From IMG/VR virus record IMGVR_UViG_3300006201_000009: a stretch of DNA of 64,000 nucleotides, one strand, 5' to 3'. The notes below the pieces were generated by a model that was not told where the DNA came from, searched no databases, and saw only the letters and a list, made by a program, of their open reading frames with translations. A program made the position numbers and the translations under genes. Shown piece after piece: positions 4,302-39,956 of this stretch. This stretch comes from a virus (lineage: Duplodnaviria > Heunggongvirae > Uroviricota > Caudoviricetes). The first letter of the stretch is position 1, and the number at the start of each line of letters is the position of its first letter.

Positions 4302-4874
4302 TTATTTTTTTGTTTCTTCAAATAGGTTTGATGCTAACAAATCAGCGACGCTGATTAACGTTACGAGTTTCGAGTTATCTTGTGCCTTGCTCAAGCTGTA
4401 ATCGCCGCCCTTGGTGGCGGAATCGAAGCCGCCCATGTGCCAACGTATAGCGAGTAATTCTTCAAGTGAAAGCTTTATGTACCACTGCAAAATGATGCAG
4501 CTCTTTTCACCGTGACCAAGTGGAACTCTCTCGTCAACTTCGTAGACTTCCTTGACAACCCAGTTGCCGTTTTCGTCTTTGACATTTCGTGTTCCGCGCT
4601 TATAGTAATTAACCTTGCAAAGGTCATGGAAGAGAGCGGTGATTGCAATTGTTTCTTTTGAATAGCCGAGTTGGTAGATGTCGTTCAGCCTTGCCAATTC
4701 TCTATGAACGTTTAGCGAGTGCTCGCACAAACCGCCTTCATAGTTTCCGTGAAATCTTGTGCTTGCTGGAGCAGTGAAGAAGTCGCTGTCTTCAAGCCAC
4801 TTCAATAAATCGTTTATACCGTCTCGCTTGATATCTTCTTTACAGATAGCGAGGAATGTTTCTTTGTTTGTCAT
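4302..4874 (-). CDS. HD-domain phosphohydrolase
   Basis: H...H...HD pattern (HSLNVH...ALFHDLCK); preceded by GTGTCTAAATATG motif and AAGGA RBS. Confidence 0.55.
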   Translation of the reverse strand: MTNKETFLAICKEDIKRDGINDLLKWLEDSDFFTAPASTRFHGNYEGGLCEHSLNVHRELARLNDIYQLGYSKETIAITALFHDLCKVNYYKRGTRNVKDENGNWVVKEVYEVDERVPLGHGEKSCIILQWYIKLSLEELLAIRWHMGGFDSATKGGDYSLSKAQDNSKLVTLISVADLLASNLFEETKK

Positions 4875-4916
4875 ATTGTTTCCTTGTGTCTAAATATGTT
4901 TTATAATGATAAAAAA

Positions 4917-5150
4917 TTATGTGTCAGATTTACTACATTCGCTACAGATCATCTTTCCAAGTTCGGCGTCGCCAAGAGGAGCTCCGCAACAAACGCATAT
5001 TTCCGACATATTACGAAGCTCAAGTTTTTGCTGTTGCCGCAATTTATGGTTAAGCTGTCGTCTTGCTGTTCTTTTCAGCGATGGGGTAACGCTATCAAGG
5101 CGAGCGTCCCATCCGGCGTCTCTCGCAGTAATCTTCTTTGTGCTACGCAT
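4917..5150 (-). CDS. Small zinc-ribbon protein
   Basis: CVCCGAPLGDAELGKMICSECS; start ATGCGTAG overlaps stop of upstream gene (translational coupling). Confidence 0.4.
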   Translation of the reverse strand: MRSTKKITARDAGWDARLDSVTPSLKRTARRQLNHKLRQQQKLELRNMSEICVCCGAPLGDAELGKMICSECSKSDT

Positions 5151-6144
5151 TTGAAAGTTCCTCTCTGATTCGCATAAGAATTTTTCCGAGCTTGTTTTTG
5201 CCCTCACCGTTGCATACACCCCATTCTCTGTCGTTCCAATCGTTACCCTCGATGAGTTGTACGGAACCAGTGGAGAGTAGTTTTTCTTTTAGGTCAGGAT
5301 GTTGCATAAACTTAGCGCGGCAAACCTCGAGCATGATGTCTTCTTTGACTTGCTCCCAGTCGGAACGAAGTTGGACGTGTCGCCCAAGTTTCTTTGCCGC
5401 CGACGGGTCGAGGTCGCAAAACTCGCTTGCTCTTTCGGGACACTTCATTGCGTGGAACGCCGCTTCATTATTCTTAAATGTAAGACCGAAACAGGTAACG
5501 TCTCTTTCGTAGAAGTTGCTTAGGTAGTAATTGTTTCCTCTGAACTCTGTGATGTCATTCATAATTTGTTCTCCGTTTATCCTTAAAAGAATTTCTCGAA
5601 CAATCTCGTCATATCCTTTCACATCGCCTTCAATGGAGCGGTAGGGGATGTTTCTGTCTTTGAGGAGCGAGATAACCGATGCACCAAGTGCGTCTGACTC
5701 AGCTTCAGTCTGCTTACGCCCAACGGGATTGTACGGCTTAACTCTCAGCAAGAGGTAGTTAAGGTTGTCGTATGTGTTGAACACATCCATTACGGCTTTG
5801 TTAAAGTTTTCTGTAAGTCGTTCGTCGTTGTTGTACATTACACTTAAAGGAAGCGGGCTGTCGGTAACGATAACATCAACCTTACCGGCGCAGCGGCTTA
5901 TCCTATAAGATTGCTCTCCAAATATGTAGGCTTGGTTGCGGAACGCTTCATCGTTTCGTTCCCAAACTTTATCTTTTGCATATTCGGTTATAAGTTCTGC
6001 ATTGATGCCTGCCATTTTAATGCAGGAGAATATGTATGCGGCTCCCGTGCTTTTGCCTGCGCCAGGAACGCCAAATAGATTAACTACCAACGTATTAGCC
6101 ATTTCGTGTACTCCAAACTTTGATAGCTTCTTCGCGTGAGTCAT
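5143..6144 (-). CDS. P-loop NTPase/kinase fused to NADAR (YbiA-like ADP-ribose/N-glycosidase) domain
   Basis: Walker A FGVPGAGKST at N-terminus; C-terminal NADAR-like signature EGNDWNDREWGVCNGEGKNKLGKILMRIREEL. Confidence 0.55.
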   Translation of the reverse strand: MTHAKKLSKFGVHEMANTLVVNLFGVPGAGKSTGAAYIFSCIKMAGINAELITEYAKDKVWERNDEAFRNQAYIFGEQSYRISRCAGKVDVIVTDSPLPLSVMYNNDERLTENFNKAVMDVFNTYDNLNYLLLRVKPYNPVGRKQTEAESDALGASVISLLKDRNIPYRSIEGDVKGYDEIVREILLRINGEQIMNDITEFRGNNYYLSNFYERDVTCFGLTFKNNEAAFHAMKCPERASEFCDLDPSAAKKLGRHVQLRSDWEQVKEDIMLEVCRAKFMQHPDLKEKLLSTGSVQLIEGNDWNDREWGVCNGEGKNKLGKILMRIREELSNA

Positions 6145-6385: not shown

Positions 6386-6472
6386 TTAAAATCTTGGCGG
6401 TCTGTTGTCGCCATCTATGTATAGCAGGGCAAGCAAAGCCCCGCACATAAGACCTAACATAAAGTAAAGCAT
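6386..6472 (-). CDS. Possible 28-aa hydrophobic peptide (MLYFMLGLMCGALLALLYIDGDNRPPRF)
   Basis: ATG preceded by GGAGA RBS and by the GTGTCTAAATATG motif (variant); below the ORF-track size cutoff. Confidence 0.25.
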   Translation of the reverse strand: MLYFMLGLMCGALLALLYIDGDNRPPRF

Positions 6473-6735
6473 AATTCTCTCCGTTGTGTCTAAATATGTC
6501 GTATAATATTTATATTTATTACCGCACAAATGGCGGCACTTATCCTATTATGTGTCTAAATATGTTTTATAATACCATATGTAAAGGAAATTGTCAAGAG
6601 ATTTTCGGCAATTTCCTAAAAAATTTTTTACATTTTCGCCACTTTCAATTACGTTTTCAAAAGCGATAGTTTTTACCTTGCCTTTAATGCTCATTTATTA
6701 TATAATGTATATACAAATTTCAAATGAGGTGCCCT

Positions 6736-6927
6736 ATGACAGAGTTAAAACTAAATGAATTCCTTGACCGTGCCGACGATTTTATAAATAATGCGTCAAT
6801 GGGGGAGGATTTCTATTCCGTTAAAACCAATTCAGGCAAGGCTATAATTATAAGCGAAGACGAGTGGAAGATAATGACCGATGCAATGAGAGTTGCAATG
6901 GGATGCAAGCCTCAAAATTGCGATTGA
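6736..6927 (+). CDS. Phd/YefM-like antitoxin-fold protein (orphan; possible small regulator)
   Basis: LKLNEFLDRADDFINNASMGEDFYSVKTNSGKAIIISEDEWKIMTD resembles YefM/Phd N-terminus; GAGGTG RBS; only plus-strand gene in a promoter-rich intergenic region; no toxin downstream. Confidence 0.4.
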   Translation: MTELKLNEFLDRADDFINNASMGEDFYSVKTNSGKAIIISEDEWKIMTDAMRVAMGCKPQNCD

Positions 6928-7739: not shown

Positions 7740-8065
7740 TGAGAAGGGTAAAAGTTCTCTATGTCCACCATTTGTCCACGCCGCCTAAGTAACAGTAGGT
7801 GAGCGTGGATGTTTTTTAATGTTAATATATGATTTAGTGTCGCTAATTGCGGCACTTTTTTTCTGTTGTGAGTGTCTAAATATGTTGCGTAGTGAAACCT
7901 AATCTTTTTGTTGAGTAAAACAAATTTATTAGGAAACACTTTCACTTATTTTCGCTAAATTCACAAGATATAGTTAAAACGGCATAGATAAACACAATAT
8001 ATAGTGTGGCATTGTCCACGCTTTTTCTTTTTGTCCACGTATTGTCCACTGGTTGTAGAGCGGGT
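7740..8065. promoter_or_regulatory. Cluster of TTGTCCAC direct repeats plus one inverted copy (GGTGGACAAAAA); candidate integrase arm-type/attP or operator sites
   Basis: ttgtccacgcc (7771), attgtccacgc (8010), ttgtccacgt (8031), attgtccactgg (8040), gggtggacaaaaa (8062). Confidence 0.35.
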
Positions 8066-8525: not shown

Positions 8526-9824
8526 TTATGCCGCGGGCGGTGTTGCCATTATCTCTTCAAAGGCGTCAGCGGCTTCTTGTTGCATATGCTCTGTGGCTTT
8601 AACGTAGGTCTGGAGCGTCGTAACGATGCTTCTATGACCAAGTCTCTGCTGTACTGCTTTCGGGCTTACACCGTTCTCTATAAGGAGCGTAGCGTGCGAA
8701 TGACGAAGCGAGTGGAAGTCAAAAGGTGTTTCTATTAGTCCCTGAATGACGCGAGTCGCATACTTGAACGTGTCTGTTGTAGAGAAGATTCCATTCTCTT
8801 CAACGCATACGAAGTTAATATGAGGTTGAACCGTTTCAATACATTTTTGTACCGGCACAATTCTCGTAATCTCATTACCTTTCTCGTCAATCTCATTTAC
8901 TGCCACATAGGTGGTGTAATATTCTCTATAGAGTTGCTCGTTACTTTCTTGGCGTTGCTTTTCTTGGCGGAGAATATCTATAAGGTGGTCTCCAATCTTT
9001 ATCACTCTACACGAGTCATATTTTGGAGGAGCAAAATACCAAGCAGATTTCTCGTTGTTTCTGCGGTAGCGCAATGAAGTCTTTTCTTCCAAACCATAGT
9101 TGCGCTTAATGATCTGTTTGTCAACGTTCAAGGTTTTATTTTCAAAGTCAATGTCTTCCCACGTAACAGCGAACGCCTCTGATATTCTCAATCCGCAGTA
9201 CCACCCAAAGAGAAGGGGGATGTGGAAGCGGTTTCCAAAAGGGAACCGTTGCATTATTTTTTCAAATTCTTCGCGACTTATTACTTGCCTTGCACGTTTT
9301 CGCTTGCCATTAGTAGGGAACTTGATATAAGTGATAGGGTTGTCTCGAATATATTTCAAGGGAAATACTGCGTAATCAAGAGCAACCTTTAAGGTGGAAA
9401 GTATCCCAAAAACATAAGAAATGGAATATCCTTTCTTGCTTAATTCGTTTGCATAGTCTTGCAATACGGAAGGGTTCAAACTTTTAAGTTTGTACATTCC
9501 TATGTGTGGTTTAATGTGTTTCTTGATAAGGTTTTGATATGTCACGAGCGTATTATATTTTAAGTTTGTAACGCAATACTGTTCATACCAATAATCAAGG
9601 TAATCATTAACACCAATCTCGGAGGGTTCAAAGTGAAGTCCTGCCGTATTATACTCCGACATCGCCAAAGCACCTGCTTCCAAGGCTTCTTTTTTTGTTT
9701 TGAACCCAGCCTTGGATATGTGCTTTCTTTTGCCATCAACCCGAGCTGCCTCAAATCGGTATTCCCAGTTTGGTTTCTTGTCGGGCTTGTTTCTGTTCCT
9801 GTCTCTTACGTTAATTTTTGCCAT
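8526..9824 (-). CDS. int: Tyrosine integrase (phage integrase family)
   Basis: C-terminal catalytic region HSLRHSHATLLIENGVSPKAVQQRLGHRSIVTTLQTYVKATE (H-x-x-R ... Y); LRISEAFAVTWEDI (R box); adjacent excisionase. Confidence 0.75.
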   Translation of the reverse strand: MAKINVRDRNRNKPDKKPNWEYRFEAARVDGKRKHISKAGFKTKKEALEAGALAMSEYNTAGLHFEPSEIGVNDYLDYWYEQYCVTNLKYNTLVTYQNLIKKHIKPHIGMYKLKSLNPSVLQDYANELSKKGYSISYVFGILSTLKVALDYAVFPLKYIRDNPITYIKFPTNGKRKRARQVISREEFEKIMQRFPFGNRFHIPLLFGWYCGLRISEAFAVTWEDIDFENKTLNVDKQIIKRNYGLEEKTSLRYRRNNEKSAWYFAPPKYDSCRVIKIGDHLIDILRQEKQRQESNEQLYREYYTTYVAVNEIDEKGNEITRIVPVQKCIETVQPHINFVCVEENGIFSTTDTFKYATRVIQGLIETPFDFHSLRHSHATLLIENGVSPKAVQQRLGHRSIVTTLQTYVKATEHMQQEAADAFEEIMATPPAA

Positions 9825-10404: not shown

Positions 10405-10462
10405 GTAATCTCCTATATGTCTAAATATGTTTTATAATCGTTAAAAATATAAGACCGTAATC

Positions 10463-11374
10463 TTATATTTCGTTGTTTTCAAGTGTCTTAACAAACTCTA
10501 CGTATTGATCGCGGTAGTTAAAGGCATAGTTTAGTGTACAACCCATTATTGACGTAATTTTATTGATAAGGCTTTGCTCACTTTTATCGTTATAGATTTC
10601 AAGGAATAAAGCATTCTTGTGCAAATTACGGAAGATAATCGATGTCTTCATTGAGCGAGGGACGCTCATATTAAACCGCTTAATTATTTGGATTATTTGC
10701 CCGCCGTCGAGTTTCTCACAATTCGCATCGGTCGGTCTAAACAGGTAATCATCATTGCCCTTTAAGATTACCTTTCTGCCCGACGGTAAACCTTTATAAG
10801 ACTCTAAATCTGATAAGTAGTATATTGCCGCGAATGGCTGTCCGTAAATCTCAAATGAGCCTCCTCTACCAGAAATCTTATAACCATCAAGTCCGATAGG
10901 GGTGAGGTCTCGAACAGTAAGGTTTGCTATGTCTTCGGGTGTAAACCCAAGCCAGCCCAATACACACACCGCCTTAACTCTTACAAGGTCTTGTGTGGGG
11001 TTGTAACCTGTCAATACTTCATCGCCAACAGCATCTATAAATGACAGAAGTTCGTTGATGCCTCTAAAATAGCAAACGCTTTCCTGAGAAGCAATTACTT
11101 CATCGCGGCTCGGCACTTCGGAGTTGACGCCCACATACTCAAAAACGTTAAGCAAATACTCTTTGATTTTTTGATAGTGCGGACGAGATATGCTGTTACC
11201 CGCTTTTTGTACATAAAAAGCGTTGCATAATAGTTGCTTGCTTTTCAATGCCTCGGCGATTGGCGTGTTACCAACCAACTCGCTAAGATTGTCAAGGAAT
11301 CTAATAACGTCGCTTTTGCGTGAAGCGTTCGCGGAAGGGTAATACCTTTCCACAAATTCTTGTTGGTTTATCAT
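10463..11374 (-). CDS. Hypothetical protein (possible degenerate integrase-like fold)
   Basis: Driven by perfect sigma70 promoter TTGACT-17-TATAAT at ~11385-11415 (minus); weak R/K/Y-like spacing only. Confidence 0.3.
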   Translation of the reverse strand: MINQQEFVERYYPSANASRKSDVIRFLDNLSELVGNTPIAEALKSKQLLCNAFYVQKAGNSISRPHYQKIKEYLLNVFEYVGVNSEVPSRDEVIASQESVCYFRGINELLSFIDAVGDEVLTGYNPTQDLVRVKAVCVLGWLGFTPEDIANLTVRDLTPIGLDGYKISGRGGSFEIYGQPFAAIYYLSDLESYKGLPSGRKVILKGNDDYLFRPTDANCEKLDGGQIIQIIKRFNMSVPRSMKTSIIFRNLHKNALFLEIYNDKSEQSLINKITSIMGCTLNYAFNYRDQYVEFVKTLENNEI

Positions 11375-11384
11375 TGTCTTATAC

Positions 11385-11416
11385 CTCCATTTTATTATAC
11401 AACATTATTAGACATA
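11385..11416 (-). promoter_or_regulatory. Consensus sigma70 promoter (TTGACTTATGTCTAATAATGTTGTATAAT) for gene 10463-11374
   Basis: Reverse complement of plus sequence gives TTGACT, 17-nt spacer, TATAAT, then GGAGG and ATG. Confidence 0.6.
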
Positions 11417-11480
11417 AGTCAATGCCGTATAAGTTAAATTTTATGTATAAGATAGGAAAAATGGGGGAAGTTTGTCAGGC

Positions 11481-12062
11481 TTACTTTTTGTTCTCTAAAT
11501 TGCTTCCGTTAAAGATATTTGTAAACAATTCTGCCATCGCCGCCTTGAATGTGTTGTCATCGAAAGGATATTCCTTTTTCAATGTTTTTGCGTCTGCTTT
11601 GTTCGGCGCAACATTGGGTGTGGGCGACTTTTCTTTTGTCTTAACCATTGACAGCAAAGGATTGAAAAGTGAGAGGAGGAGTGCATATTTTTCTTCAACG
11701 CTCATCCTTACGTCGAACTCAATTTCATCGCCTATGCCGCCAATAAATTCGTCATACTGCTCGTCCATTTCGTCAGACGCCTCGGCTATTGCGCAAATAT
11801 GTATATCGTGCTTTGTAAACTTCACAAGGAAGCTGACTGACTGAACGTCAAAAGGGAGGTTGAGTGGATGTCCACATTCCTCGAAGTCGTACTGGAATGT
11901 TACGACTTTTTCATCCGCATCGGCGTGTAGCGTCATAATAAGGTTGGGGTCAAATACAGCATCGTCGCATACAAGCTGCTTGCCCTTTGAGTTTCTGTTT
12001 GTACTGAAAAGTTTCATCTCTGATGTTCTCCTAATTTGATAATTTTTTTTCGAGTTGGTCAA
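11481..12062 (-). CDS. Hypothetical protein
   Basis: ORF only. Confidence 0.3.
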   Translation of the reverse strand: MTNSKKNYQIRRTSEMKLFSTNRNSKGKQLVCDDAVFDPNLIMTLHADADEKVVTFQYDFEECGHPLNLPFDVQSVSFLVKFTKHDIHICAIAEASDEMDEQYDEFIGGIGDEIEFDVRMSVEEKYALLLSLFNPLLSMVKTKEKSPTPNVAPNKADAKTLKKEYPFDDNTFKAAMAELFTNIFNGSNLENKK

Positions 12063-13050
12063 TCTTTGAAACTATATCATCGATTGTATAGTTATTGCCT
12101 GCTACGATTTCGTGTATGTCAGTCTTTCCCAGAACGAACTCGCTCACGGACTCACGGGCTTTGTCAAACATCTGTTGATAAGTGCCCAGATATCTCATAG
12201 TGACGCGCTGGTCGCTATGGTTCAAAAGCCCTTGGATTTTCGTGATTGCGTTCATGTCGATACTTGACTTATCTACACAAGCAGCAATGTTGGCGAAGCT
12301 TTTACGCATTGTGTGTGAGCCTATTATAATTGGTAGGTTCAAAGCTTTGCCGGCGTCGGACAAAATCTTCCACCCATATTCCTCAAACATTTTGCCCTTC
12401 GTCTTATTACTTTTGAAGAGGTAATCGTCTAACTCGAAGTCCCAATTTATTGAGTCAAATAACTTCGTCGCCGCGTCTTTGACTGATTGGGTTATCAGGC
12501 AATTATTTATCTTCAAAGTTTTTTGTTCGACGATATACATTCTTTGACGAAATGTTCTATCGTCATTGAGCAAGTAACTTATCTTTAGCGATAGTAAGTC
12601 CGAGATACGCAATCCAAGGCTTACTCCGATTGTCCACAACGCCCAATCACGTATTTTGCCTTGCTCCAAAAAATAATTTTGGATTGACGCAAAGTCTTCA
12701 TATGAACGTATCGGGTCTGCCGGACGTGGTTTCCTTTTGCCGTCGGACTTAAATTCAGAGAATACTATGGGTTCCGCGGCTTCCATTTCGGCTTTTGTTC
12801 GACGCTTACGACGTGGTTTATTTTCAAGCTCGCAAATTTGCCGTTGTAGTTTATCTACGCGATCTTCTGCATCACGTCTCATGATACGTTCAACCGCAAG
12901 CTCTTCAACGAGCTGTTTGTTTTCCAGTTCAAGGCGATCTGCTCTTTCTGCGTCTGTTTCAAATGCCCTTGGAACGGGAAAGTTTAATACAACTGAGTCG
13001 CGGCTACAATCAGTTCGCATCGTCATCTCCCTCCATATATATTTTTTCAA
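12031..13050 (-). CDS. Tyrosine recombinase (second copy) with N-terminal coiled-coil
   Basis: GVSLGLRISDLL (R), GSHTMRKSFA (H-x-x-R), VTMRYLGTY (Y); N-terminal heptad-like region. Confidence 0.55.
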   Translation of the reverse strand: MKKYIWREMTMRTDCSRDSVVLNFPVPRAFETDAERADRLELENKQLVEELAVERIMRRDAEDRVDKLQRQICELENKPRRKRRTKAEMEAAEPIVFSEFKSDGKRKPRPADPIRSYEDFASIQNYFLEQGKIRDWALWTIGVSLGLRISDLLSLKISYLLNDDRTFRQRMYIVEQKTLKINNCLITQSVKDAATKLFDSINWDFELDDYLFKSNKTKGKMFEEYGWKILSDAGKALNLPIIIGSHTMRKSFANIAACVDKSSIDMNAITKIQGLLNHSDQRVTMRYLGTYQQMFDKARESVSEFVLGKTDIHEIVAGNNYTIDDIVSKIDQLEKKLSN

Positions 13051-13208: not shown

Positions 13209-13550
13209 TTAAACTCCTATACCGATAGAAATCATAAGTTTTCTGTTAATGTCGTCAATTTTACTTCTATTAACAACTTCGCCCAACTTTTTCTTAAGTC
13301 TCGTTTTGTCTACAACTCTGACCTGCTCACATAACACCGTAGAAACTTTAAGTATTCCTGCATCGCTTGGCGTCAGCGTAACGTGAGTTTCTATCGGTGT
13401 TTTATCTTGAGATGTGAGAGGGCAAATGATAGTAGTAGGGGAATGTTGGTTCCCTTGTTCATTCTGTACTATCAAAGCGGGGCGAATACCGGTTTGTTCC
13501 GAGCCTACCTGATTACTTAAATCGACTAAATATATTTCGCCTCGGTGCAT
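13209..13550 (-). CDS. mazF: MazF/PemK-family endoribonuclease toxin
   Basis: GEIYLVDLSNQVGSEQTGIRPALIVQNE...IICPLTSQ...VLCEQVRVVDKTRL is collinear with the MazF/PemK consensus. Confidence 0.65.
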   Translation of the reverse strand: MHRGEIYLVDLSNQVGSEQTGIRPALIVQNEQGNQHSPTTIICPLTSQDKTPIETHVTLTPSDAGILKVSTVLCEQVRVVDKTRLKKKLGEVVNRSKIDDINRKLMISIGIGV

Positions 13551-17906: not shown

Positions 17907-18367
17907 ATTTCAACCTTCCATTTATCGTCGGCAAATTCTTCTTCGATGATTTTTCTCACTATGTTCCAGTCGCCGCCACCCAGTCCGCAACCGATGCCAT
18001 AAGGGAAGCCAATAGTAAATTCTGTATCGGCAATCTCTATCGGAATAAGGGTTTTAAGTTGTTGGCAGCATAGCCTAAACATCTCATAGTTCGTATGGTT
18101 AATGCCACGCGGCAAGTAATGAAGCTGTGCGAACATATTAGCAATGTAGTGGGTCTTAGCCTCTGAAATTGCGCATATTTGAGCAACTCCCATTAGGTAT
18201 TCCAGTTTATTCTGCTCGCATAGCTGTTTATATTTTGAAAAGATATGGGGGTAAGTGGCGCGTATCTGTTTTGCGATGCCTGAACCCATAACTCCTTGAC
18301 AGTTTACTTGGTGGCAGATGATATTGCAGTTGCTTTTAAGCAAATCTCCGTTTTTATATGTGATCAT
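17891..18367 (-). CDS. Macro-domain protein (ADP-ribose binding/hydrolase)
   Basis: ITYKNGDLLKSNCNIICHQVNCQGVMGSGIAKQI matches the macrodomain N-terminal signature. Confidence 0.6.
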   Translation of the reverse strand: MITYKNGDLLKSNCNIICHQVNCQGVMGSGIAKQIRATYPHIFSKYKQLCEQNKLEYLMGVAQICAISEAKTHYIANMFAQLHYLPRGINHTNYEMFRLCCQQLKTLIPIEIADTEFTIGFPYGIGCGLGGGDWNIVRKIIEEEFADDKWKVEIWKLN

Positions 18368-19860
18368 TAAAATTTATCTCCATAAAGCCTTCTGCGGACA
18401 TCGGCAAGACTATATTCGAGCGTCATCTTGCCGTCGTTAAAGACCGTCTTTAGGGCATTGTCGGCACGATAAGTCTCTTTGAAGTCGTGTTCGTCTTCGC
18501 TTGTTAACGCGCCGTCAGCCCCCGTTAAAACGAGCACACAGCCTTTGTGAGACTTTTTGAACGAAGCCTCTTTGGGATTTTTGAAAATCATTATAGGCTT
18601 TCCGTCTTTATCTTCAGCATAAGTCGCCTTGATGGCAATTCCGAACGTATCTCTTGTGTAGGGGTTGAACGTCGGGATAGCAGCGTGTTCCTCGTAAGAC
18701 TCAAGGCATTGCATAGAGAAGCTACCAACACCGAGAGCAACATTGCTTGCTGCAAATCCGTTGTCAACCAATATCGTGTAAATTGCTTCTGCTCTTTGAG
18801 GCGTAATGCTATCGCCGTATATTGCCTTGATATGGGGGTTTAGAACCTTGTAGCCCTTTGAGTTGACTGTTCCACCGAACTGCTCCCAAAGGTGGAACAC
18901 GGTCTTTGTGACGACCTCAACGGGGTCGCCAGAGTCGCCGCGCACCAAGAGACATCCGTTATGCTCGAGGATTTCTTTCTTACACATTGGCAAGATGTTG
19001 TCTACCAAGTTCCAGTAATCGTAGCTGTCGCTCACCATACTGAAAGACGTATTAGGATAGATTTCTGTGAGCAGACGCTTAATCATTGTGATTTCGTCAC
19101 CGTCAACCGCGAAATTGCTGCACATTACAGAGTGCTCAGTTGACACAGAACCAAAGCCGACTTCCTCTTTTGAACAGTCGCAGTTATAATATCTTTCCAT
19201 ATAATCTACCGCAGGAACGGTGGCAGTGTTCACGAATGATAACAGCCAACCGGCGGAAGATTTATATGCACTACGTTTTGACTCTTGTCCTCTCATTGAG
19301 AAATCTCCAAGAGCTTTTCTACGAGGGATATTGTCGTCGCAACTTAAATCATAGAAGTGATCTACAATTTTCCTATATTTGTACCCGACATTTGCCGAAA
19401 TCATGGCGTGCCACATTTCGCAACTGATGACAGATTCGAGCGCGTTTGTAAGCCAAGCAAAATCGGGGTGAGTGTTGCTTATCTCGAACATAGGAACGCC
19501 GATTGGAACGAGAGTGCCTTCTGCGAGTGCCTTAATCTCAATGGGCAGATAGCCCAAGTCGTGTAGTTCTGCGATGCGCTCAATGCCGTACAACCCTTCA
19601 CCGAGTGTGTTGTTGAGGAGATGTTTGTATTCGCGTACAACGTCTTCCTTAGGACGGGAAAAGAAGAACTCGTTAAAGTCTTCGATAAGATATTCTTTGA
19701 TGAAAGACTGTAACCCAAACATTATAAGGTGTTTATCGTTCTTTAATCTGCTCATTCTTGGCACAAAATAGCTTACGACCTTCGTGATGCCTTTTGGATA
19801 TTGGTTCCAATGAACTTGTTTATAAAAATCGCTTTCTAAAAGCGGGTTAATTCTGTACAT
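18367..19860 (-). CDS. nadV: Nicotinamide phosphoribosyltransferase (NAMPT/NadV)
   Basis: ESDFYKQVHWNQYPKGITKVVSYFVPR N-terminal NAMPT signature; 497 aa. Confidence 0.65.
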   Translation of the reverse strand: MYRINPLLESDFYKQVHWNQYPKGITKVVSYFVPRMSRLKNDKHLIMFGLQSFIKEYLIEDFNEFFFSRPKEDVVREYKHLLNNTLGEGLYGIERIAELHDLGYLPIEIKALAEGTLVPIGVPMFEISNTHPDFAWLTNALESVISCEMWHAMISANVGYKYRKIVDHFYDLSCDDNIPRRKALGDFSMRGQESKRSAYKSSAGWLLSFVNTATVPAVDYMERYYNCDCSKEEVGFGSVSTEHSVMCSNFAVDGDEITMIKRLLTEIYPNTSFSMVSDSYDYWNLVDNILPMCKKEILEHNGCLLVRGDSGDPVEVVTKTVFHLWEQFGGTVNSKGYKVLNPHIKAIYGDSITPQRAEAIYTILVDNGFAASNVALGVGSFSMQCLESYEEHAAIPTFNPYTRDTFGIAIKATYAEDKDGKPIMIFKNPKEASFKKSHKGCVLVLTGADGALTSEDEHDFKETYRADNALKTVFNDGKMTLEYSLADVRRRLYGDKF

Positions 19861-21891: not shown

Positions 21892-21968
21892 TGGTCGGAG
21901 CGACAGGATTTGAACCTGCGACCTTATGATCCCAAATCATACGCACTACCAAACTGTGCTACGCCCCG
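21892..21968 (-). tRNA. tRNA-Pro (anticodon UGG), CCA encoded
   Basis: Acceptor CGGGGCG/CGCTCCG, D arm GCACAGTTTGGTAGTGC, loop TTTGGGA, T loop GGTTCAAATCC, CCA. Confidence 0.7.
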
Positions 21969-22097
21969 ATGGCGGGTTAACGTGACCCGAACGGCATATC
22001 CCATAATTTAGCGCCGAAATGTGGTGCAACATTGTACTTCTGTTACATAATCCAACATTTCATTTAGGGCTATGGAAATCATTTGCTCTAACCCTCG

Positions 22098-22174
22098 TTG
22101 GTCGGAGTGAGAGGACTCGAACCCCCAAATTGCTGATCCTAAGTCAGCCGCCTATGCCAATTCGGCTACACTCC
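22098..22174 (-). tRNA. tRNA, type I, anticodon-loop CTTAGGA (anticodon UAG; Leu-like anticodon but no long variable arm)
   Basis: Acceptor CGGAGTG/CACTCCG + CCA; T loop TTCGAGT; D loop AATTGGCATA shared with two neighbours. Confidence 0.5.
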
Positions 22175-22177
22175 GTT

Positions 22178-22254
22178 GTGGTGGGAGAAGAGAGACTTGA
22201 ACTCTCAGAACCCAGTGTTTGAGGCTGGTACGTATGCCAATTCCGTCATTCTCC
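22178..22254 (-). tRNA. tRNA, type I, anticodon loop CTCAAAC (anticodon CAA?)
   Basis: Acceptor GGGAGAA/TTCTCCC + CCA; T loop GTTCAAGTC; D loop AATTGGCATA. Confidence 0.45.
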
Positions 22255-22359
22255 CGCGTCCTGCACCTAAGCATTGCTTATATACATCCGCAAGTTCTCG
22301 TTAAGCTATTCCTTGTTTCAGCTATTCCCAATACCCTTAACGTGGCTGGGAGGTGCAAG

Positions 22360-22436
22360 TGGTCAGGACGGTGGGAGTTGAACCCACAAAACACGGGGTT
22401 TAAGCCCGATGTCTATGCCAATTCGACTACGTCCTG
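22360..22436 (-). tRNA. tRNA, type I, anticodon loop CTTAAAC (anticodon UAA?)
   Basis: Acceptor CAGGACG/CGTCCTG + CCA; T loop GGTTCAACTCC; D loop AATTGGCATA. Confidence 0.45.
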
Positions 22437-22602
22437 ATAAAGCTCTTTCCAATTCGCCCAAGATTTCTCTTGCTCACGAGCAGATGAGTAGGTCGGTGAT
22501 GTTACCTGACGTTTCTTGGTTGTGATGTTATGTGCAATCATCACAAGCGCCGGTGCTTCTGGAAAGAGTTGTTATGTCGTTCTTGCACTGAACGGACATA
22601 AG

Positions 22603-22677
22603 TGGAGCGGGTAGCGAGAATTGAACTCGCACCTTCTGCTTGGAAGGCAGACGTCGTAGCCTTTTGACTATGCCCGC
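22603..22677 (-). tRNA. tRNA-Gly (UCC)
   Basis: Acceptor GCGGGCA; anticodon stem TCTGC/GCAGA, loop CTTCCAA; T loop GTTCAATTC; CCA. Confidence 0.65.
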
Positions 22678-23037
22678 AAAAAAAACTAATGGTGTGCTGT
22701 TACGCTAAAGACTCCAAGGGCACATATAGCATTGCCAGCGAACAGGGACTTAGCATATTCCACTGGGTTAAGTCGCAGAGTTTTCCTTTCTTTGCAACCT
22801 TACTATATTACACACTACTTACAGCTCTCGAACATCATAGATATCAGACCCTCGGGCGTATTTCAACGCCGTCCAAACTGCACTATATTGATGCCGTACC
22901 ACTTTCGTTTCCCTGAGGTGAAGATGTGTAGTGTAAGTTCACATCACATCGTTTCTTGTATGCCCGTGTACTTTGTCATACTTCCTCTCGTCACTCTTTA
23001 GATGGTGGCTGCTTCTAAGCCCACATTCCATTAGTGA

Positions 23038-23120
23038 TGGTGGGAGAGGTTGGACTCGAACCAACGAAGCCGAAACGCCTGATTTACAGTCAGGTGCAAT
23101 TGCCGCTATGCGACTCTCCC
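23038..23120 (-). tRNA. tRNA-Tyr (GUA), type II with long variable arm
   Basis: Acceptor GGGAGAG/CTCTCCC, anticodon stem CCTGA/TCAGG loop CTGTAAA, variable arm ~13 nt, T loop GGTTCGAGTCC, CCA. Confidence 0.65.
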
Positions 23121-23166
23121 ATGTAGTAAGAGCATCCTACCTAAACATTGAACGAACCGCCCCAGG

Positions 23167-23200
23167 TGGACGGTGTTGGAGTCGAACCAACATCTCTCTT
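23167..23200 (-). other. tRNA 3'-half-like remnant (T arm + acceptor 3' strand + CCA) immediately after tRNA-Lys
   Basis: Minus strand reads ...GTTGGTTCGACTCCAACACCGTCCA with no 5' half. Confidence 0.4.
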
Positions 23201-23276
23201 TGGTACCCGCGGTGAGAATCGAACTCACGACCCTTTGATTAAAAGTCAAATGCTCTACCGACTGAGCTACGCGGAT
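23201..23276 (-). tRNA. tRNA-Lys (UUU)
   Basis: GCGTAGCTCAGTCGGTAGAGCA D arm; anticodon stem TTTGA/TCAAA loop CTTTTAA; T loop GTTCGATTC; CCA. Confidence 0.65.
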
Positions 23277-23550
23277 AAAAAACAAGACACACCGAGACCT
23301 TCTATGTACATAAAGTAGCCAAAAATGGCAGAGGGCAACCAACGTAACACCTATATCCGCTCCCAGTTGCTTTTGCGGAGGAGTATGCTATTTAAGCATA
23401 AATCATTTAGCTTTGCTAAAAGTCATCTAACAACGGTTAGAACGTGGAAAACTCGCCAGCGAGCAGTCCTCAACTATACTGTTAATCTTCGTAAAGTTGC
23501 TGTGTGTGTCTTTAATAATGCGATGTTAAAAGGAGTGTACTTAATCGCAT

Positions 23551-23624
23551 TGGCAGGGACGGATGGGCTCGAACCATCACTGCGGGAGTCAAAGTCCCGT
23601 GCGCTACCGTTACGCTACGTCCCT
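23551..23624 (-). tRNA. tRNA-Gln (UUG)
   Basis: Acceptor AGGGACG/CGTCCCT; anticodon stem CGGGA/TCCCG loop CTTTGAC; T loop GGTTCGAGCCC; CCA. Confidence 0.6.
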
Positions 23625-23898
23625 ATAAAGGCTTTAAGGTCAGCCAACCGCACATACTTAACCCGAAAAATACTCAGGGTTGGATATTTGCTCCCCGAAG
23701 GTTTTACTCGATACTCAAACACACAAAGGGAATTTTCACTCGTCTCGTGAAATTCGTTATCGAATCGGATTTTCATGAGCTCGCGTAGTGAGCTTCTAAA
23801 AATCTGATTTGATGGAAGGGCGTTGTGATACATTTGCTATAAGCAAGTGCCTAACAGTATGTATAAAAGTTAGCATTGCTGTTTGAGTATCGGAGTAG

Positions 23899-23978
23899 TG
23901 GTGGAGCTGTTGGGATTTGAACCCAAGTCCTACGAATTCACTTTGGTTTTAATCGTAGTCGAAACCTTTCTCAGCCCC
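23899..23978 (-). ncRNA. tRNA-like RNA with canonical acceptor stem, T arm and CCA but aberrant D/anticodon region
   Basis: GGGGCTG...TTGGGTTCAAATCCCAA CAGCTCC A CCA; central part folds as an 5-bp stem (TACGA/TCGTA) with a 17-nt loop rather than a cloverleaf. Confidence 0.4.
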
Positions 23979-23979
23979 A

Positions 23980-24055
23980 TGGTTGGCAAGGATGGAATCG
24001 AACCATCGGCAACTGGTTTATAAGACCAGCCCCATCACCACTTGGGTACTTGCCA
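23980..24055 (-). tRNA. tRNA with anticodon UAU (Ile-like, AUA-decoding)
   Basis: Acceptor TGGCAAG/CTTGCCA, U8A9, D stem CCCA/TGGG loop AGTGGTGA, anticodon stem CTGGT/ACCAG loop CTTATAA, T loop TTCGATT, A73, CCA. Confidence 0.6.
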
Positions 24056-24060
24056 ATATG

Positions 24061-24136
24061 TGGAGCTGGATGTCGGACTTGAACCGACAACCTATCGCTT
24101 ACAAGGCGATTGCTCTGCCAATTGAGCTAATCCAGC
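24061..24136 (-). tRNA. tRNA-Thr (UGU)
   Basis: GCTGGATTAGCTCAATTGGCAGAGC; anticodon stem ATCGC/GCGAT loop CTTGTAA; T loop GGTTCAAGTCC; CCA. Confidence 0.65.
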
Positions 24137-24138
24137 GT

Positions 24139-24216
24139 TGGTCACCGCAGAGGGGGTCGAACCCTCAAACTCCACCGTGAAAGGGTGGTGACTTTAGCCA
24201 TTTTGTCTATGCGGCG
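24139..24216 (-). tRNA. tRNA-Glu (UUC)
   Basis: Anticodon stem CCACC/GGTGG loop CTTTCAC; T loop GGTTCGACCCC; CCA; acceptor with one G-U. Confidence 0.55.
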
Positions 24217-24368
24217 ATAAAAATATATAGGCTGTTCCTCAAACTCCATTTAACGTATCGTTATTTTCCGGCGCCCCAGTCAATAACTTTATCCATCCTT
24301 TCCCCGTTTCAATGCGGGTGTCTGCTTTACACTTCACTTCGCGGTTAGTACGGCACCTATATATTTTT

Positions 24369-24515
24369 TGGTGACTCGAACAGGAATTGAACCTGTACAT
24401 CTATCCCGTTTCTCGGCTACATACTGCAATGCAGGGATGTCGCGAACATCGCCGTAACCTACGCTTTAAGGCTTACTGTTCCCTCAGGGGTGTTCTATCA
24501 TTGAACTATCGAGCC
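24369..24515 (-). ncRNA. 147-nt tRNA-like RNA: canonical acceptor, U8A9, D arm, T arm and CCA, with ~70 extra nt replacing/inside the anticodon-variable region
   Basis: 5' GGCTCGA-TA-GTTC-AATGATA-GAAC ... 3' ACAGG-TTCAATT-CCTGT-TCGAGTC-A-CCA; 7-bp acceptor pairing (one G-U); internal small hairpins (CCCTGAGGG, GCGATGTTCGC, CTGCATTGCAG). Confidence 0.45.
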
Positions 24516-24518
24516 AAA

Positions 24519-24608
24519 TGGCGGAGGGTGTAGGACTCGAACCTACGCTCCGAATGAACGGAGAACGGCTTAGCAAGCCGCGGCAGTACCAACTATGCTT
24601 AACCCTCC
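24519..24608 (-). tRNA. tRNA-Ser (GCU), type II
   Basis: Acceptor GGAGGGT/ACCCTCC; anticodon stem GCGGC/GCCGT loop TTGCTAA; variable arm CTCCG-TTCATT-CGGAG; T loop GGTTCGAGTCC; CCA. Confidence 0.65.
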
Positions 24609-24622
24609 AAGCGGGAGCATCG

Positions 24623-24886
24623 CTACTCCCAATATGGATATATTTCAGCATCCGACACGTCTCCGTGAGACCATTTTACTGCCTTTCCGGCGTGAACAAT
24701 GGGCTCATCTTCTTTGTCATCGAATGATTGTTGTACCTTTTGCGTTGCGGCTTCTTCATTTTTTGCAAACACAACTCGTTGTCCATATATTCTGCCGCCG
24801 TCAAAGTAGGTTCCAGAGTAGGGAACTGTGAATTTCTTTAATCCTTTAATCATAAAACACCTATTCTGTATTGAAATTTTCGCCAT
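24623..24886 (-). CDS. Hypothetical protein
   Basis: ORF only. Confidence 0.3.
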   Translation of the reverse strand: MAKISIQNRCFMIKGLKKFTVPYSGTYFDGGRIYGQRVVFAKNEEAATQKVQQSFDDKEDEPIVHAGKAVKWSHGDVSDAEIYPYWE

Positions 24887-25133
24887 TCGCAGATATAAAG
24901 GTTGTAACAGCTTTTGCTATGTCATTTTTTTCACCTTTGATAACGAGAGTAAGTTCAGTTTGATACGATTGCTTGCACTTAACTATTGCTATATTAAATC
25001 GCGAATGATTTCGTATGAACCATTCCAGTGCGTGACGAACAGGGACATACAGGTATTCGCCAAATGAACACGTGCGGTCATATTTATGCACGGAATTTAT
25101 GTGAAGCACTTTCTTTCTTTTCATATTGACCAC
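24861..25133 (-). CDS. Hypothetical protein
   Basis: ORF only. Confidence 0.3.
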   Translation of the reverse strand: MVNMKRKKVLHINSVHKYDRTCSFGEYLYVPVRHALEWFIRNHSRFNIAIVKCKQSYQTELTLVIKGEKNDIAKAVTTFISANGENFNTE

Positions 25134-25156
25134 CTTTTTTGAATAAAAGAGTACTT

Positions 25157-25378
25157 TTATTTAAGGTTACGCAAGATTGTTTTCTTGTCTATGTCACACA
25201 TCTCGCAAAGTTCATCAAACCAGTCAGACGAAAAGAATTTTTTCAGCTCTTTCATATTGAAGTCCTTGCATTCCGTGGCTTGTCCGTTCCGTAATGCTCG
25301 GAAATCTGAGATTGCTTGTAGCAATACTGCGGCAATCAATCTGCGAATGGTTGTTTGATCAACATACTGTGTGCTCAT
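25157..25378 (-). CDS. Hypothetical protein
   Basis: ORF only. Confidence 0.3.
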   Translation of the reverse strand: MSTQYVDQTTIRRLIAAVLLQAISDFRALRNGQATECKDFNMKELKKFFSSDWFDELCEMCDIDKKTILRNLK

Positions 25379-25402
25379 ATTTATGTATCCTTATAAATTT
25401 TT

Positions 25403-25491
25403 TGGCGGAAGCGGTGAGATTTGAACTCACGAACCCTTGCGGATTGCCAGTTTTCAAGACTGGTGCAATAAACCAAGCTCTGCCACACTTC
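25403..25491 (-). tRNA. tRNA-Ser (UGA), type II
   Basis: Acceptor GGAAGTG/CGCTTCC; anticodon stem CCAGT/ACTGG loop CTTGAAA; long variable arm; T loop GGTTCAAATCTC; CCA. Confidence 0.6.
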
Positions 25492-25502
25492 CATAGTAGG
25501 GT

Positions 25503-25974
25503 TTAACCCCACACGACGGCGCATAAACTTGCAAGTCGCGCTCTATATTCAAAGTCTTTCGGTAAAAAATTGCCGTACAAGAGCTTCATTTCCGAAATCA
25601 AAGCCTCTTCGCTTTCATAAGCTTGCTCAAACAGCGACGCATACCTCGGTAAACACATCAAAACCCAATCATCGTTCTCAACATCAACACCTATTTCGTT
25701 AATGTCTTTGATAAGAGGGGTAAAATCACCGTAAATATCGTTTCCGTATGACCATTTGTGACAGATTACACCTTGTTCCCAATTTTCTTTGAGATAATAT
25801 TGGCTATCGTCGCAAATGTATTGTCTAATGGCGTCGTATATATCTTCGCCTTCGTCGGGTTCAAGCTCAATGCCGTCTTTTTCTTTAATATATTCGCGGA
25901 ATTTTTCCACGTCGATTTCCTGAATTTTGACCGCAAGCCCTTTATCGCTCACGGCATAGCTGTGTGTACTCATA
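25503..25974 (-). CDS. Hypothetical acidic protein
   Basis: AAGGAG RBS before MSTHSY start; longer ORF-track version overlaps tRNA-Trp and is rejected. Confidence 0.4.
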
Positions 25975-25988
25975 ATTGCTCCTTTTTT

Positions 25989-26062
25989 TGGCAAGGGTGG
26001 GGCGAATTGAACGCCCATCAATGGTTTTGGAGACCACCGTCCTACCATTAAACGACACCCTT
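25989..26062 (-). tRNA. tRNA-Trp (CCA)
   Basis: A1-U72 acceptor AAGGGTG/CACCCTT; anticodon stem GTGGT/ACCAT loop CTCCAAA; T loop GCGTTCAATTCGC; CCA. Confidence 0.6.
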
Positions 26063-28819: not shown

Positions 28820-29699
28820 CGCACTGATGAAAAGTGTCTAATAATTTCGACAACTCGTCTGGCAATGCCGCGCTATATTTTGTGTGAAGGAACACATCCA
28901 TATGTACGTTAATAAGCCAATAAATCAATGCTCTCTGTTTGATATGTAGGGGAATGGTTTCTTCGTATCCAATGGCGAAGTAGCTTCCCACATTTTGATG
29001 GTTGTAGAAGTGAGCAATCTCGCTCGGTTCGCCGCGGCTATTCTTAAAGCCTTTCACGAATTTTTTCCCAATATCGTGTAGACTTGCCGCAATAAGCAAC
29101 GTAATTGCAACTCCTTTGTGTGAACTTCTGTTTTTCTGCAATTTTGCGGCTTCCGTCATAACTTTCAAAGTGTGTTCTTTGACTGTGTTGTTATGATGAG
29201 GATTGTCGTGTTCGCAATCGAGCCAATTTTCATAATCGCTGTGCTTATAAGATTCGTCGTTTACCTTAAACTCAATTTCATCCCAGCCCTCATCGTAATA
29301 GGGTGGCTGAAAATTAAGAAGCATACGCTTAATGACACTTTCGCCTACATTACGATTTCTGCTACAGTCCCTCGCTACGCAAGTTTCGTATCTTGCCCAT
29401 ACTACGCAGGCGATTTTCTTGCAAGGTATTTTGAGACTCGATAAGAGATGTTTGCGCTTTTTGCGACTGATGTTGGTTGCATCATATACAACATTCTTGC
29501 TGCTTTTAAGTGCGGCGATAGTGCGGCGCTGCATTTCCTCAAATATTTTAGAAGGGTTGTCCTGAATAGCTTCGTCGCCATAGAACTCTTTTCTTATCGC
29601 GTCGGAGGATAAAATAATTGTATTGTCGTTGGTGAGTTGTTTTGCAACCTCGGTTTTGCCGGAGCCAGGCAATCCTATAAGCATAGTGAATTTAACCAT
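28803..29699 (-). CDS. P-loop polynucleotide-kinase-like domain fused to HD phosphohydrolase (HD-Pnk-like)
   Basis: Walker A LIGLPGSGKTEVAKQL; C-terminal HD motif LLIAASLHDIGKKF; GGAGAGG RBS before MVKFTMLIG start. Confidence 0.5.
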   Translation of the reverse strand: MVKFTMLIGLPGSGKTEVAKQLTNDNTIILSSDAIRKEFYGDEAIQDNPSKIFEEMQRRTIAALKSSKNVVYDATNISRKKRKHLLSSLKIPCKKIACVVWARYETCVARDCSRNRNVGESVIKRMLLNFQPPYYDEGWDEIEFKVNDESYKHSDYENWLDCEHDNPHHNNTVKEHTLKVMTEAAKLQKNRSSHKGVAITLLIAASLHDIGKKFVKGFKNSRGEPSEIAHFYNHQNVGSYFAIGYEETIPLHIKQRALIYWLINVHMDVFLHTKYSAALPDELSKLLDTFHQCDVAGA

Positions 29700-30054
29700 A
29701 GACGACCTCTCCAAAAATCGCATACTGGATAATTGCGTCTGCATCTTCGGCATCGATTTCACCTGCATCGATTTTTCCTTCGTAAAGAATATCAAGCCCA
29801 CGCTCTTCGGCAATCTTTGTTAATCCGGCTATAAACTTTTCAAGATTAAGTTCATACCATTTGTCTTCATCGGAATCGTGAAGCCTAAGTGTGCCGCCGC
29901 GAGAAATCTGATCGCTTGCATATTCTCCGAGATGATCTCCAACAACTTCGGCGCAATCACACCAGTAAGAAATCCCGCCATCTAATGCGGTGCTCATTAT
30001 ATCGTCAATGCACTGATTGTCGTATTCAACTTCATAAGTAATGGTAAGTTTCAT
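29692..30054 (-). CDS. Hypothetical acidic protein
   Basis: Start MKLTITYE preceded by GAGG RBS and GTGTCTAAATATG motif; longer ORF-track version would translate the motif. Confidence 0.35.
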   Translation of the reverse strand: MKLTITYEVEYDNQCIDDIMSTALDGGISYWCDCAEVVGDHLGEYASDQISRGGTLRLHDSDEDKWYELNLEKFIAGLTKIAEERGLDILYEGKIDAGEIDAEDADAIIQYAIFGEVVYG

Positions 30055-30079
30055 GTTGCGCCTCGTGTCTAAATATGTT

Positions 30080-30694
30080 TTATTTTTGTTTAATTTTATC
30101 GCCAAAGAGTTGTTTGGCTTTCTTTATGTAAAACTTGCTCAAATCATCGTCGCTCATTTCGTTGTCGAAGAATTCATCGATACAAGCGGGGTCTTGACCT
30201 TGCATAGCGGGAGGCATATCACTGTACCACTCATGGATATATGCAGCATAGATCAAAATATCTTCAGGCTCATAACAATCAAGACCAACAAGAGGGGAGA
30301 TACCGCCGTCCGTAAGGACGTTGTCAAGTTCATCCCAGTTAATTTCCCAAAATTCATCGTTCTCGTTGAGTGCTTCCTGCCAATGGCTCACCAATTCATC
30401 TACGACTTTTATTGGTAATGCTTTAACAATTTCTTCGACTTCTTCTCCAAAATATTCCTTGGCTTGCGTTATCACGTCTTCTCTGTGATACTCCGCATCG
30501 ACCTCTCTTGAGATTATTTCGCGATTGTCATAAATGAACTGAACAAGTGCATCTTCAAAATCATAGTAGGGCTGATCTTTTAAGTGTGAAACCGCAGGAT
30601 TCTTATCGATAAATTCGGCAACCTTTTGCCTTATCGAGTTATCGCCACACTCGTCCCAAAATTTGTCGTTTCTCATATGGTCTCCTATTAACAA
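30080..30694 (-). CDS. Hypothetical acidic protein
   Basis: ORF only. Confidence 0.3.
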   Translation of the reverse strand: MLIGDHMRNDKFWDECGDNSIRQKVAEFIDKNPAVSHLKDQPYYDFEDALVQFIYDNREIISREVDAEYHREDVITQAKEYFGEEVEEIVKALPIKVVDELVSHWQEALNENDEFWEINWDELDNVLTDGGISPLVGLDCYEPEDILIYAAYIHEWYSDMPPAMQGQDPACIDEFFDNEMSDDDLSKFYIKKAKQLFGDKIKQK

Positions 30695-39950: not shown

Positions 39951-39956
39951 AAATGA

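Follow-up and report, generated by a model that had tools for sequence, protein, structure and literature searches.

Genes of the window and the repeated element

The stretch of DNA analyzed here (the window; 64,000 nt of the IMG/VR virus record IMGVR_UViG_3300006201_000009) harbors 13 copies of an element that, in its gene-sense form, is the 22-mer ATTATAAAACATATTTAGACAC. A megablast search with 10 kb of the window against the phage collection returned no nucleotide match; comparison of the encoded proteins showed synteny with SPbeta (YonV, YonO, YonJ, YonN, YomM, YonG, YonF, YonE, YonD, and YonC). On the plus strand, a YonV-like gene (48811-50136) is followed by genes for a 62-aa protein, an RNA polymerase (50325-53126), a YonJ-like exonuclease, and a YonN/HU-like protein, and then by those for a YomM-like recombinase, a YonG-like protein, terminase, portal, and YonD- and YonC-like proteins. 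The minus-strand block contains replication as well as nucleotide and NAD metabolism genes, 14 tRNAs, and an integrase together with a Xis-like protein. Since integrase and Xis-like genes are present, and since close relatives sit in contigs of 0.3-0.9 Mb, one of which adjoins host secA, the window is considered part of a temperate prophage, which, judged from its sequence, is a distant SPbeta-like one.

Allowing at most 1 mismatch, GTGTCTAAATATG matches 12 times within the 64-kb window; 100 dinucleotide-preserving shuffles averaged 0.10 matches and gave 2 at most, none of them (0/100) reaching 12. The core CATATTTAGACAC is invariant among the copies, while the TATA 5' of it is kept less strictly; the invariant portion of the element is this 13-14-nt core, not the TATA portion. 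The copies were divided into two classes. Class A comprises 3 copies in reversed orientation (11394-11415, 42907-42928, and 48476-48497), each of which exactly fills the 17-bp spacer of a sigma-A promoter. The other 10 copies form class B and are sense to their flanking genes without exception (10/10), 8 of them in the minus-strand block and 2 in the plus-strand block. The copies, the promoters that carry class A, and the two genes of greatest concern here are as follows:

4886-4907, minus strand: class B copy, ending 11 nt 5' of the ATG of the HD-phosphohydrolase gene 4302-4874
6486-6507, minus strand: class B copy, ending 13 nt 5' of the ATG (6472) of the open reading frame (ORF) 6386-6472 for a 28-aa hydrophobic peptide
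6552-6573, minus strand: class B copy, covering -10 to about +11 of the sigma-A promoter TTGACA-17-TATTAT (6597 to 6569, TG-extended)
7872-7893, minus strand: class B copy within a 424-bp intergenic region, with a GC-rich hairpin (7836-7856) coming after it
10417-10438, minus strand: class B copy ending in GACAT, directly after the repressor-like gene and an AT-rich hairpin, 12 nt 5' of the ATG of an operon (81-aa protein, Xis-like protein, integrase, PTH2)
10463-11374, minus strand: 303-aa tyrosine-recombinase-fold protein (AlphaFold2 model, Foldseek), candidate reader of the element
11394-11422, minus strand: sigma-A promoter TTGACT-17-TATAAT with a degenerate reversed copy (4/22 mismatches) in its spacer, driving the repressor-like gene 10463-11374
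30065-30086, minus strand: class B copy, 10 nt 5' of the ATG of 29692-30054
42411-42432, minus strand: class B copy, 15 nt 5' of the ATG of 42054-42395; the module is also found in the relative L137
42835-42856, minus strand: class B copy, after a short terminator hairpin (42873-42885) and 5' of a structured non-coding RNA of about 390 nt
42907-42935, minus strand: sigma-A promoter TTGACT-17-TATAAT, its spacer filled by a reversed copy; homologous module in L137
48469-48497, plus strand: sigma-A promoter TTGACT-17-TATAAT, its spacer filled by a reversed copy, heading a leader and the operon for the YonV-like protein, the 62-aa protein, and the RNA polymerase
49650-49671, plus strand: class B copy in a poorly conserved linker of the YonV-like ORF, 5' of the RNA polymerase gene
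50325-53126, plus strand: YonO-type single-chain two-barrel RNA polymerase of 933 aa with a DMDSD motif; tblastn matches are YonO and genes annotated as 'RNA-dependent RNA polymerase'
53191-53212, plus strand: class B copy, 64 nt past the RNA polymerase stop codon and 92 nt 5' of the late operon (YonJ-like exonuclease gene)

In six class B copies, the core lies 10-24 nt 5' of a start codon. For five copies (genes at 4874, 6472, 10404, 30054, and 42395), core end and start codon are 10-15 nt apart, and the Shine-Dalgarno sequence follows 0-3 nt after the core, in agreement with the preliminary description of this DNA, which had placed the core just 5' of the Shine-Dalgarno sequence of these five minus-strand genes. 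The same description had counted at least 13 copies, which was borne out, and had correctly located one copy within 48811-50136, another 5' of 53305 (at 92 nt), and an inverted pair at 42835/42907. The three TTGACT-17-TATAAT promoters that it listed are real, but their coordinates had to be corrected: two run on the minus strand, from 11422 to 11394 and from 42935 to 42907, and one on the plus strand, from 48469 to 48497.

Altogether, four copies overlap sigma-A promoters, three in the spacer (48469, 42907, and 11394) and one at -10/+1 (6569), with the three spacer-embedded promoters scoring 11/12 by sigma-A criteria (-35, 17-bp spacer, and -10). The motif is the sole element common to the consensus sigma-A promoters, and the promoter-embedded class A copies lie outside the transcript of their own promoter. 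For the gene-sense copies other than 6552, an upstream sigma-A promoter is absent or not conserved, and no strong sigma-A promoter was found in the 31 kb between 42907 and 11394.

Several further features adjoin the copies. A leader or non-coding RNA of about 270 nt (48498-48769, plus strand) lies between the promoter 48469-48497 and a strong terminator at 48751-48769; because this terminator precedes the operon for the YonV-like protein and the RNA polymerase, polymerase expression may need read-through or antitermination. The control region from which the early genes and the polymerase operon diverge contains TATAGTAACAGTAAGCT twice as a direct repeat, at a distance of 32 bp (48312-48369, plus strand); these repeats may be binding sites of another regulator or an origin. 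The post-polymerase copy is flanked by the inverted repeat CTATACGAC / GTCGTATAG (53192-53200 and 53233-53241, plus strand), for which L125 has the compensating pair ACGCC / GGCGT. The GC-rich structured non-coding region between two motif copies (42440-42835, minus strand; about 390 nt) has a minimum free energy of -124 kcal/mol (z = -3.0) and matched no Rfam family; blocks of it are kept in L137, e.g., CTTATACCTCAC and GGGCTTTGGGT.A.ACTCAAAGT. Finally, the 28-aa hydrophobic peptide MLYFMLGLMCGALLALLYIDGDNRPPRF (6386-6472, minus strand), encoded behind a strong sigma-A promoter and two motif copies, has a toxin-like appearance.

Coordinated variation of the element among relatives

A search with the polymerase yielded 20 viral and 22 metagenomic loci as relatives. 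An exact 14-nt scan of IMG/VR gave chance single matches only, and the longer pattern TATANNMCATATTTAGACAC was used instead, which occurs almost exclusively on contigs of this phage family. In relatives with a polymerase 65-92% identical, the core has been kept at three positions in synteny with the window: the sigma-A promoter that drives the polymerase operon, where it is reversed, the interior of the YonV-like gene, and a point 80-110 nt past the polymerase stop codon. The arrangement with the motif in the spacer of the polymerase-operon promoter is found in all relatives. Furthermore, the orthologue of the 4886 site is 22/22 identical in L012 and L228, with both flanks fully diverged and no conserved -35, and L228 keeps both copy 6552 and the promoter at 6569.

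At least 3 variant motifs substitute for the window motif (variant 1) in a coordinated fashion, at promoter-embedded as well as at gene-proximal sites; the variant motif sequences are ACACTTTTAGACAAC, ACACTCTTGTAG, and CCACTTGTGGA. L126 carries the variant CACACTTTTAGACAAC after its polymerase gene and, reversed, in a TTGACA-17-TATAAT spacer ahead of the operon, and L236 carries ACACTCTTGTA both after the polymerase gene and in the spacer of the operon promoter. For variant 4, L131 has GGACACTTGTGGATGG at the post-polymerase site, and L258 has ACCACTTGTGGACTG at the site orthologous to 4886. Since the variants change together at both types of site, we infer that a single co-evolving DNA-binding factor reads both classes, and the coordinated change likewise excludes chance and a purely host-sigma explanation. 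In distant relatives, de novo k-mer motif discovery was noisy; the targeted comparison of post-polymerase and operon-promoter sites worked.

A repeated element of its own is present in L130 (IMGVR_UViG_3300045988_171386), the polymerase of which is 48% identical. This element, TAATAACTATAAAAATAAT, lies gene-sense, 5-25 nt before ribosome-binding sites (copies, e.g., at 266, 660, 1022, 1779, 5888, and 13247), and one copy is located directly 5' of the homologue of the recombinase-family gene 12031-13020.

A repressor-like protein as the candidate reader

The gene that appears, on the basis of its structural model, to be the most relevant for the motif, 10463-11374, was missing from the preliminary description. 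Its 303-aa product belongs to no Pfam, PHROG, or NCBIfam family. The AlphaFold2 model, built from 40 homologues (predicted local distance difference test score, 90), has a repressor-like fold: the best match in the PDB is 9rgl, the SroF-Sar complex (E 2.5e-6), and further matches are 9rd5, the SroF-DNA complex (E 7.2e-6), and 8bj6, YopR (E 8.7e-5), with XerA, Cre, and lambda Int ranking below SroF/YopR. Box I of the family alignment, read by eye only, is GWxGF[ST]xxEI, apparently lacking the catalytic arginine.

The gene is part of a conserved module consisting of a recombinase-family gene, a 178-aa gene, the motif-bearing promoter, the repressor-like gene, the hairpin, a class B copy, the 81-aa gene, Xis, and integrase. 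This module recurs in L260, L262, and L259, where the repressor homologues are 72, 49, and 46% identical, respectively, and the variant-1 core is kept after the gene. In the variant-4 relative L258, identity of the repressor homologue falls to 33% (hhalign E 9e-42), compared to 42-85% for five neighbors, three of which reach 67-85%; divergence of this kind is that of an immunity cassette. Scanning IMG/VR with a profile for repressor homologues yielded a single locus.

The known system that this arrangement most resembles is found in SPbeta itself. SPBRE (SPbeta repeated element) has been established as the operator of MrpR/YopR by chromatin affinity purification sequencing and electrophoretic mobility shift assays, and MrpR is a catalytically dead master repressor with a tyrosine-recombinase fold (PMC10516654). 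SroF of phi3T is the same protein as MrpR and clamps, as a monomer, a 24-bp asymmetric operator at many sites (bioRxiv 10.1101/2025.11.27.690993). Re-derived from the SPbeta genome, SPBRE occupies the spacer of the TAGACA-17-TATAAT promoters of yonP-yonO, yorE, yorM, yorZ, and yosX and also immediately precedes the ribosome-binding sites of yopM, yopV, and yonX, with all copies gene-sense. The window shares with this system a multicopy, long, asymmetric element in an SPbeta-type prophage with a YonO-type polymerase, its presence both in sigma-A spacers, including that of the polymerase-operon promoter, and directly before ribosome-binding sites, and a copy before a small toxin-like peptide, as SPBRE has at yonT; moreover, SPBRE-type repressors (SroF/YopR) are the best structural matches of the modeled window protein. 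However, the SPBRE consensus ACAAATACAAATAATATGTATA is unrelated, having only AATATGT..TATAAT next to the -10 in common, with a 1-nt shift, and no MrpR homologue was detectable by sequence in the window (BLAST and hhalign). In addition, spacer copies are inverted relative to gene-proximal copies in the window but have a single orientation in SPbeta, the window, unlike SPbeta, has copies inside and past the polymerase operon, and most gene-proximal copies here lack an adjacent sigma-A promoter.

A second point of comparison is the mycobacteriophage-type system of L5 (Cluster A), whose operator/stoperator sites are bound by a monomer, lie in promoters and short intergenic spaces, and have an orientation that tracks the direction of transcription (PMC9283540). 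Like the sites of L5 gp71, the element is asymmetric, present in many copies in promoters and short intergenic spaces, co-oriented with transcription, and represented by motif variants among related phages. In contrast, gp71 consists of a helix-turn-helix and a stoperator domain, whereas the candidate repressor here has an integrase fold; the host phylum differs as well, promoter-embedded copies are inverted here, and a block of elongation is, for this family, only inferred.

Taken together, the element is probably an SPBRE-type operator of the master repressor of the prophage, most likely of the 303-aa integrase-fold protein encoded by 10463-11374, which, going by its model, would bind it. 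A temperate phage with consensus sigma-A promoters needs operators at them, and these promoters have no element in common other than the motif. By analogy with SroF/MrpR, the 303-aa repressor would clamp each long asymmetric 22-mer as a monomer; the monomeric binding of SroF to its 24-bp asymmetric multi-site operator fits the 20-22-bp asymmetric multicopy motif. Bound to the class A spacers, and to the -10/+1 region of the promoter at 6569, the repressor would block initiation by sigma-A RNA polymerase, and this repression would shut down the polymerase operon, through which late expression is reached, as well as the long leftward operon and the 28-aa toxin-like peptide (6386-6472). It would also silence its own gene through the degenerate copy, whose position in the promoter at 11394 suggests autoregulation of 10463-11374. 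The remaining class B copies, in short intergenic gaps and in the YonV-like gene, may stop read-through transcription or serve as extra operators, and a stoperator-like block of elongation at gene-proximal copies is probable by analogy with L5. In function and architecture, the system thus proposed is of the SPBRE/MrpR(SroF) type already known from SPbeta, with L5-like stoperator features, in a very distant lineage.

Several observations weigh against this assignment. Two of the differences from SPbeta, the missing MrpR homologue and the inversion of promoter-embedded relative to gene-proximal copies, are among them, and the reader was assigned from fold similarity and gene context. Foldseek gave modest TM-scores (0.41-0.45, reflecting domain arrangement), and identity to SroF/YopR is 11-14%. 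Repressor homologues at 46-49% identity are still found beside an unchanged motif, so that co-variation is coarse, and L258 and L131 are only assumed, from their common sample, to represent one variant-4 phage. Four further strong sigma-A promoters lack the motif. Moreover, most gene-sense copies have no recognizable upstream sigma-A promoter, which would also suit promoters of a phage polymerase, and class B copies acting as such promoters would readily account for the small number of sigma-A promoters in the 31-kb middle region.

Alternative readers and implications

The foremost alternative, which we nevertheless consider unlikely, is that the element is the promoter of the phage YonO-type RNA polymerase, with gene-sense copies starting middle and late transcripts within the core and reversed copies allowing the polymerase to occlude early host-type promoters or to fire divergently. 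The phage has a polymerase of its own, there are few sigma-A promoters for the 31-kb middle region, and the motif resembles phage polymerase promoters (T7-type, P23-45 two-barrel, and the single mapped YonO promoter of SPbeta) in being 20-22 bp long, conserved, asymmetric, multicopy, and sense in 10/10 cases, with Shine-Dalgarno sequences, a non-coding RNA, or tRNAs following immediately; among other two-barrel phage polymerases, multicopy motifs with strong conservation are in use (bioRxiv 10.1101/2022.12.01.518664). One copy, furthermore, occupies the slot after the polymerase gene that in SPbeta contains the only mapped YonO start site (PMC5467207). The published position of this start site is 2225998 of B. 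subtilis 168 (PMC5467207), and on the SPbeta sequence it is only bracketed by primer positions; alignment and k-mer footprinting among YonO relatives for the start site were uninformative.

However, the motif variant does not follow polymerase phylogeny: the polymerases of L125 (variant 1) and L131 (variant 4) are 77% identical, whereas the window and L125 share variant 1 with polymerases that are 65% identical. Of the 319 positions that are invariant in variant-1 polymerases, L131 differs at only 16, and these are scattered, with no specificity cluster. Copies overlap host promoters in operator-like positions, and a polymerase promoter would require antisense firing at 42907 and 11394, would leave the consensus sigma-A promoters of a temperate phage without an operator, and is at odds with the homologous architecture of SPbeta, which has a repressor at the polymerase-operon promoter. 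In addition, a separate conserved element at the late operon is the better late promoter or leader candidate. This element, TATAGGAAAGAGA at 53237-53249 (plus strand), has the family consensus TATA(T)GGrGAGA, is found 110-160 nt past the polymerase gene in 12/28 relatives compared, the polymerases of which are 40-100% identical, and often has a stem after it in which GGAGAGA pairs with TCTCC; on sequence grounds, the YonO-type polymerase may use it as a late promoter or 5' leader. Conservation does not extend to the SPbeta clade, and as the repeated element itself TATAGGrGAGA was rejected, being single-copy in the window.

Next in probability, and likewise unlikely, another DNA-binding regulator of the phage (activator or repressor) could read the element, e.g., the 329-aa protein encoded by 12031-13020 or a protein encoded outside the window, which is only part of the prophage. 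The former has a Phage_integrase domain, is encoded just upstream of the promoter at 11394, is 67-71% conserved in relatives, and has homologues beside YonV-YonO operons in distant prophages. However, it keeps all catalytic residues (R, HxxR, H, and Y) and thus appears to be an active recombinase, its three-way divergence is like that of its neighbors, and it is the 303-aa protein that specifically matches SroF/YopR. As dead-integrase repressors, the recombinases 8526-9824, 54855-55847, and 12031-13020 were rejected because of their retained catalytic residues. The preliminary description had named a different gene, 46705-47454, as that of the phage sigma factor and a possible reader. Neither role held: only a C-terminal LuxR/GerE helix-turn-helix was detected in its product, a LuxR-type regulator, and sigma region 2 was not found, and its recognition helix differs completely among phages with an identical motif (HRKTLQEHLQAIQRK in the window, ARGNVNTYRQRIKAK in L230, and TESTVKTYQYRIREK in L124).

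A doubtful proposal, placed behind the two preceding ones, combines operator and polymerase promoter: one 22-bp element would be both the repressor operator and the promoter of the YonO-type polymerase, with repressor and polymerase competing at every site. If so, the inverted copies would let the phage polymerase shut off early host-type transcription, and the element would be the first promoter consensus for a YonO-family polymerase.

A role in RNA, as a 5' leader element (translational operator, translational enhancer, or processing site), is very unlikely. Six copies do lie 10-24 nt before a start codon, where any upstream promoter would transcribe them. However, reversed copies in untranscribed spacers vary in concert with the leader copies, some copies precede non-coding RNA or tRNA genes rather than an ORF, and the motif-bearing leaders are unstructured (z-scores of -1.0 to +1.1) and matched no Rfam family. 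Of the two roles that the preliminary description had assigned to one core, both contexts (sigma-A spacer and before the ribosome-binding site) and a phage regulator reading DNA are therefore retained, while a translational repressor or RNA leader is not. The least likely explanation, that all copies are host sigma-A promoters using the palindromic ATTATA/TATAAT end as a -10 in either direction, accommodates the four copies that overlap good sigma-A promoters but is contradicted by gene-sense -10 candidates (TATAAA, TATACG, TATACA, and CATAAA) without T at -7, by the absence of a conserved -35, as in the 4886-site orthologues with their unrelated upstream sequence, and by the invariance of the core instead of the TATA.

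The window also encodes features that lie apart from the element. The only plus-strand gene in the minus-strand block, 6736-6927, encodes a 63-aa protein that is Phd/YefM antitoxin-like as judged by eye. The 14-tRNA cluster (21892-26062, minus strand) includes a short Rfam match to tmRNA (69 bits) at 23899-23978 (minus strand), and two long (about 118 nt) tRNA-like Rfam matches (39832-40073, minus strand) lie directly 5' of the DUF2828/DUF7788 gene 38167-39711 (minus strand) and may be the RNA partner of the DUF2828/DUF7788 protein. In the early region, 46208-46273 (minus strand) shows a sub-threshold match to the F. prausnitzii HDV-like ribozyme (31 bits compared to a gathering threshold of 44; E 0.008). 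Moreover, a MazF/PemK toxin gene, a third tyrosine-recombinase-family gene with a coiled-coil N-terminus, and NAD-related genes (NAMPT, NAD synthase, NADAR, Macro, and isochorismatase) are present, for which the coordinates are, jointly, 13209-13550, 12031-13020, 18367-19860, and 5143-6102 (all on the minus strand), and a protein with a reverse-transcriptase domain is also encoded.

Even the promoter alternative would be of interest, as it bears on the YonO promoter, which is still undefined in the literature searched. If the element is the operator of a master repressor, as we favor, the MrpR/SroF-type lysogeny switch would reach beyond the SPbeta phages of Bacillus and would operate in a widespread family of uncultivated prophages (from gut and other metagenomes), with only fold-level similarity to the Bacillus repressors. 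The promoter-less gene-sense copies suggest a stoperator-like control of elongation by this class of repressors, which has not been described for SPbeta. Furthermore, the family would provide natural specificity variants, with at least 4 operator versions at orthologous sites beside strongly diverged repressor alleles, which could be used to learn how the integrase fold reads DNA and how heteroimmunity evolves.

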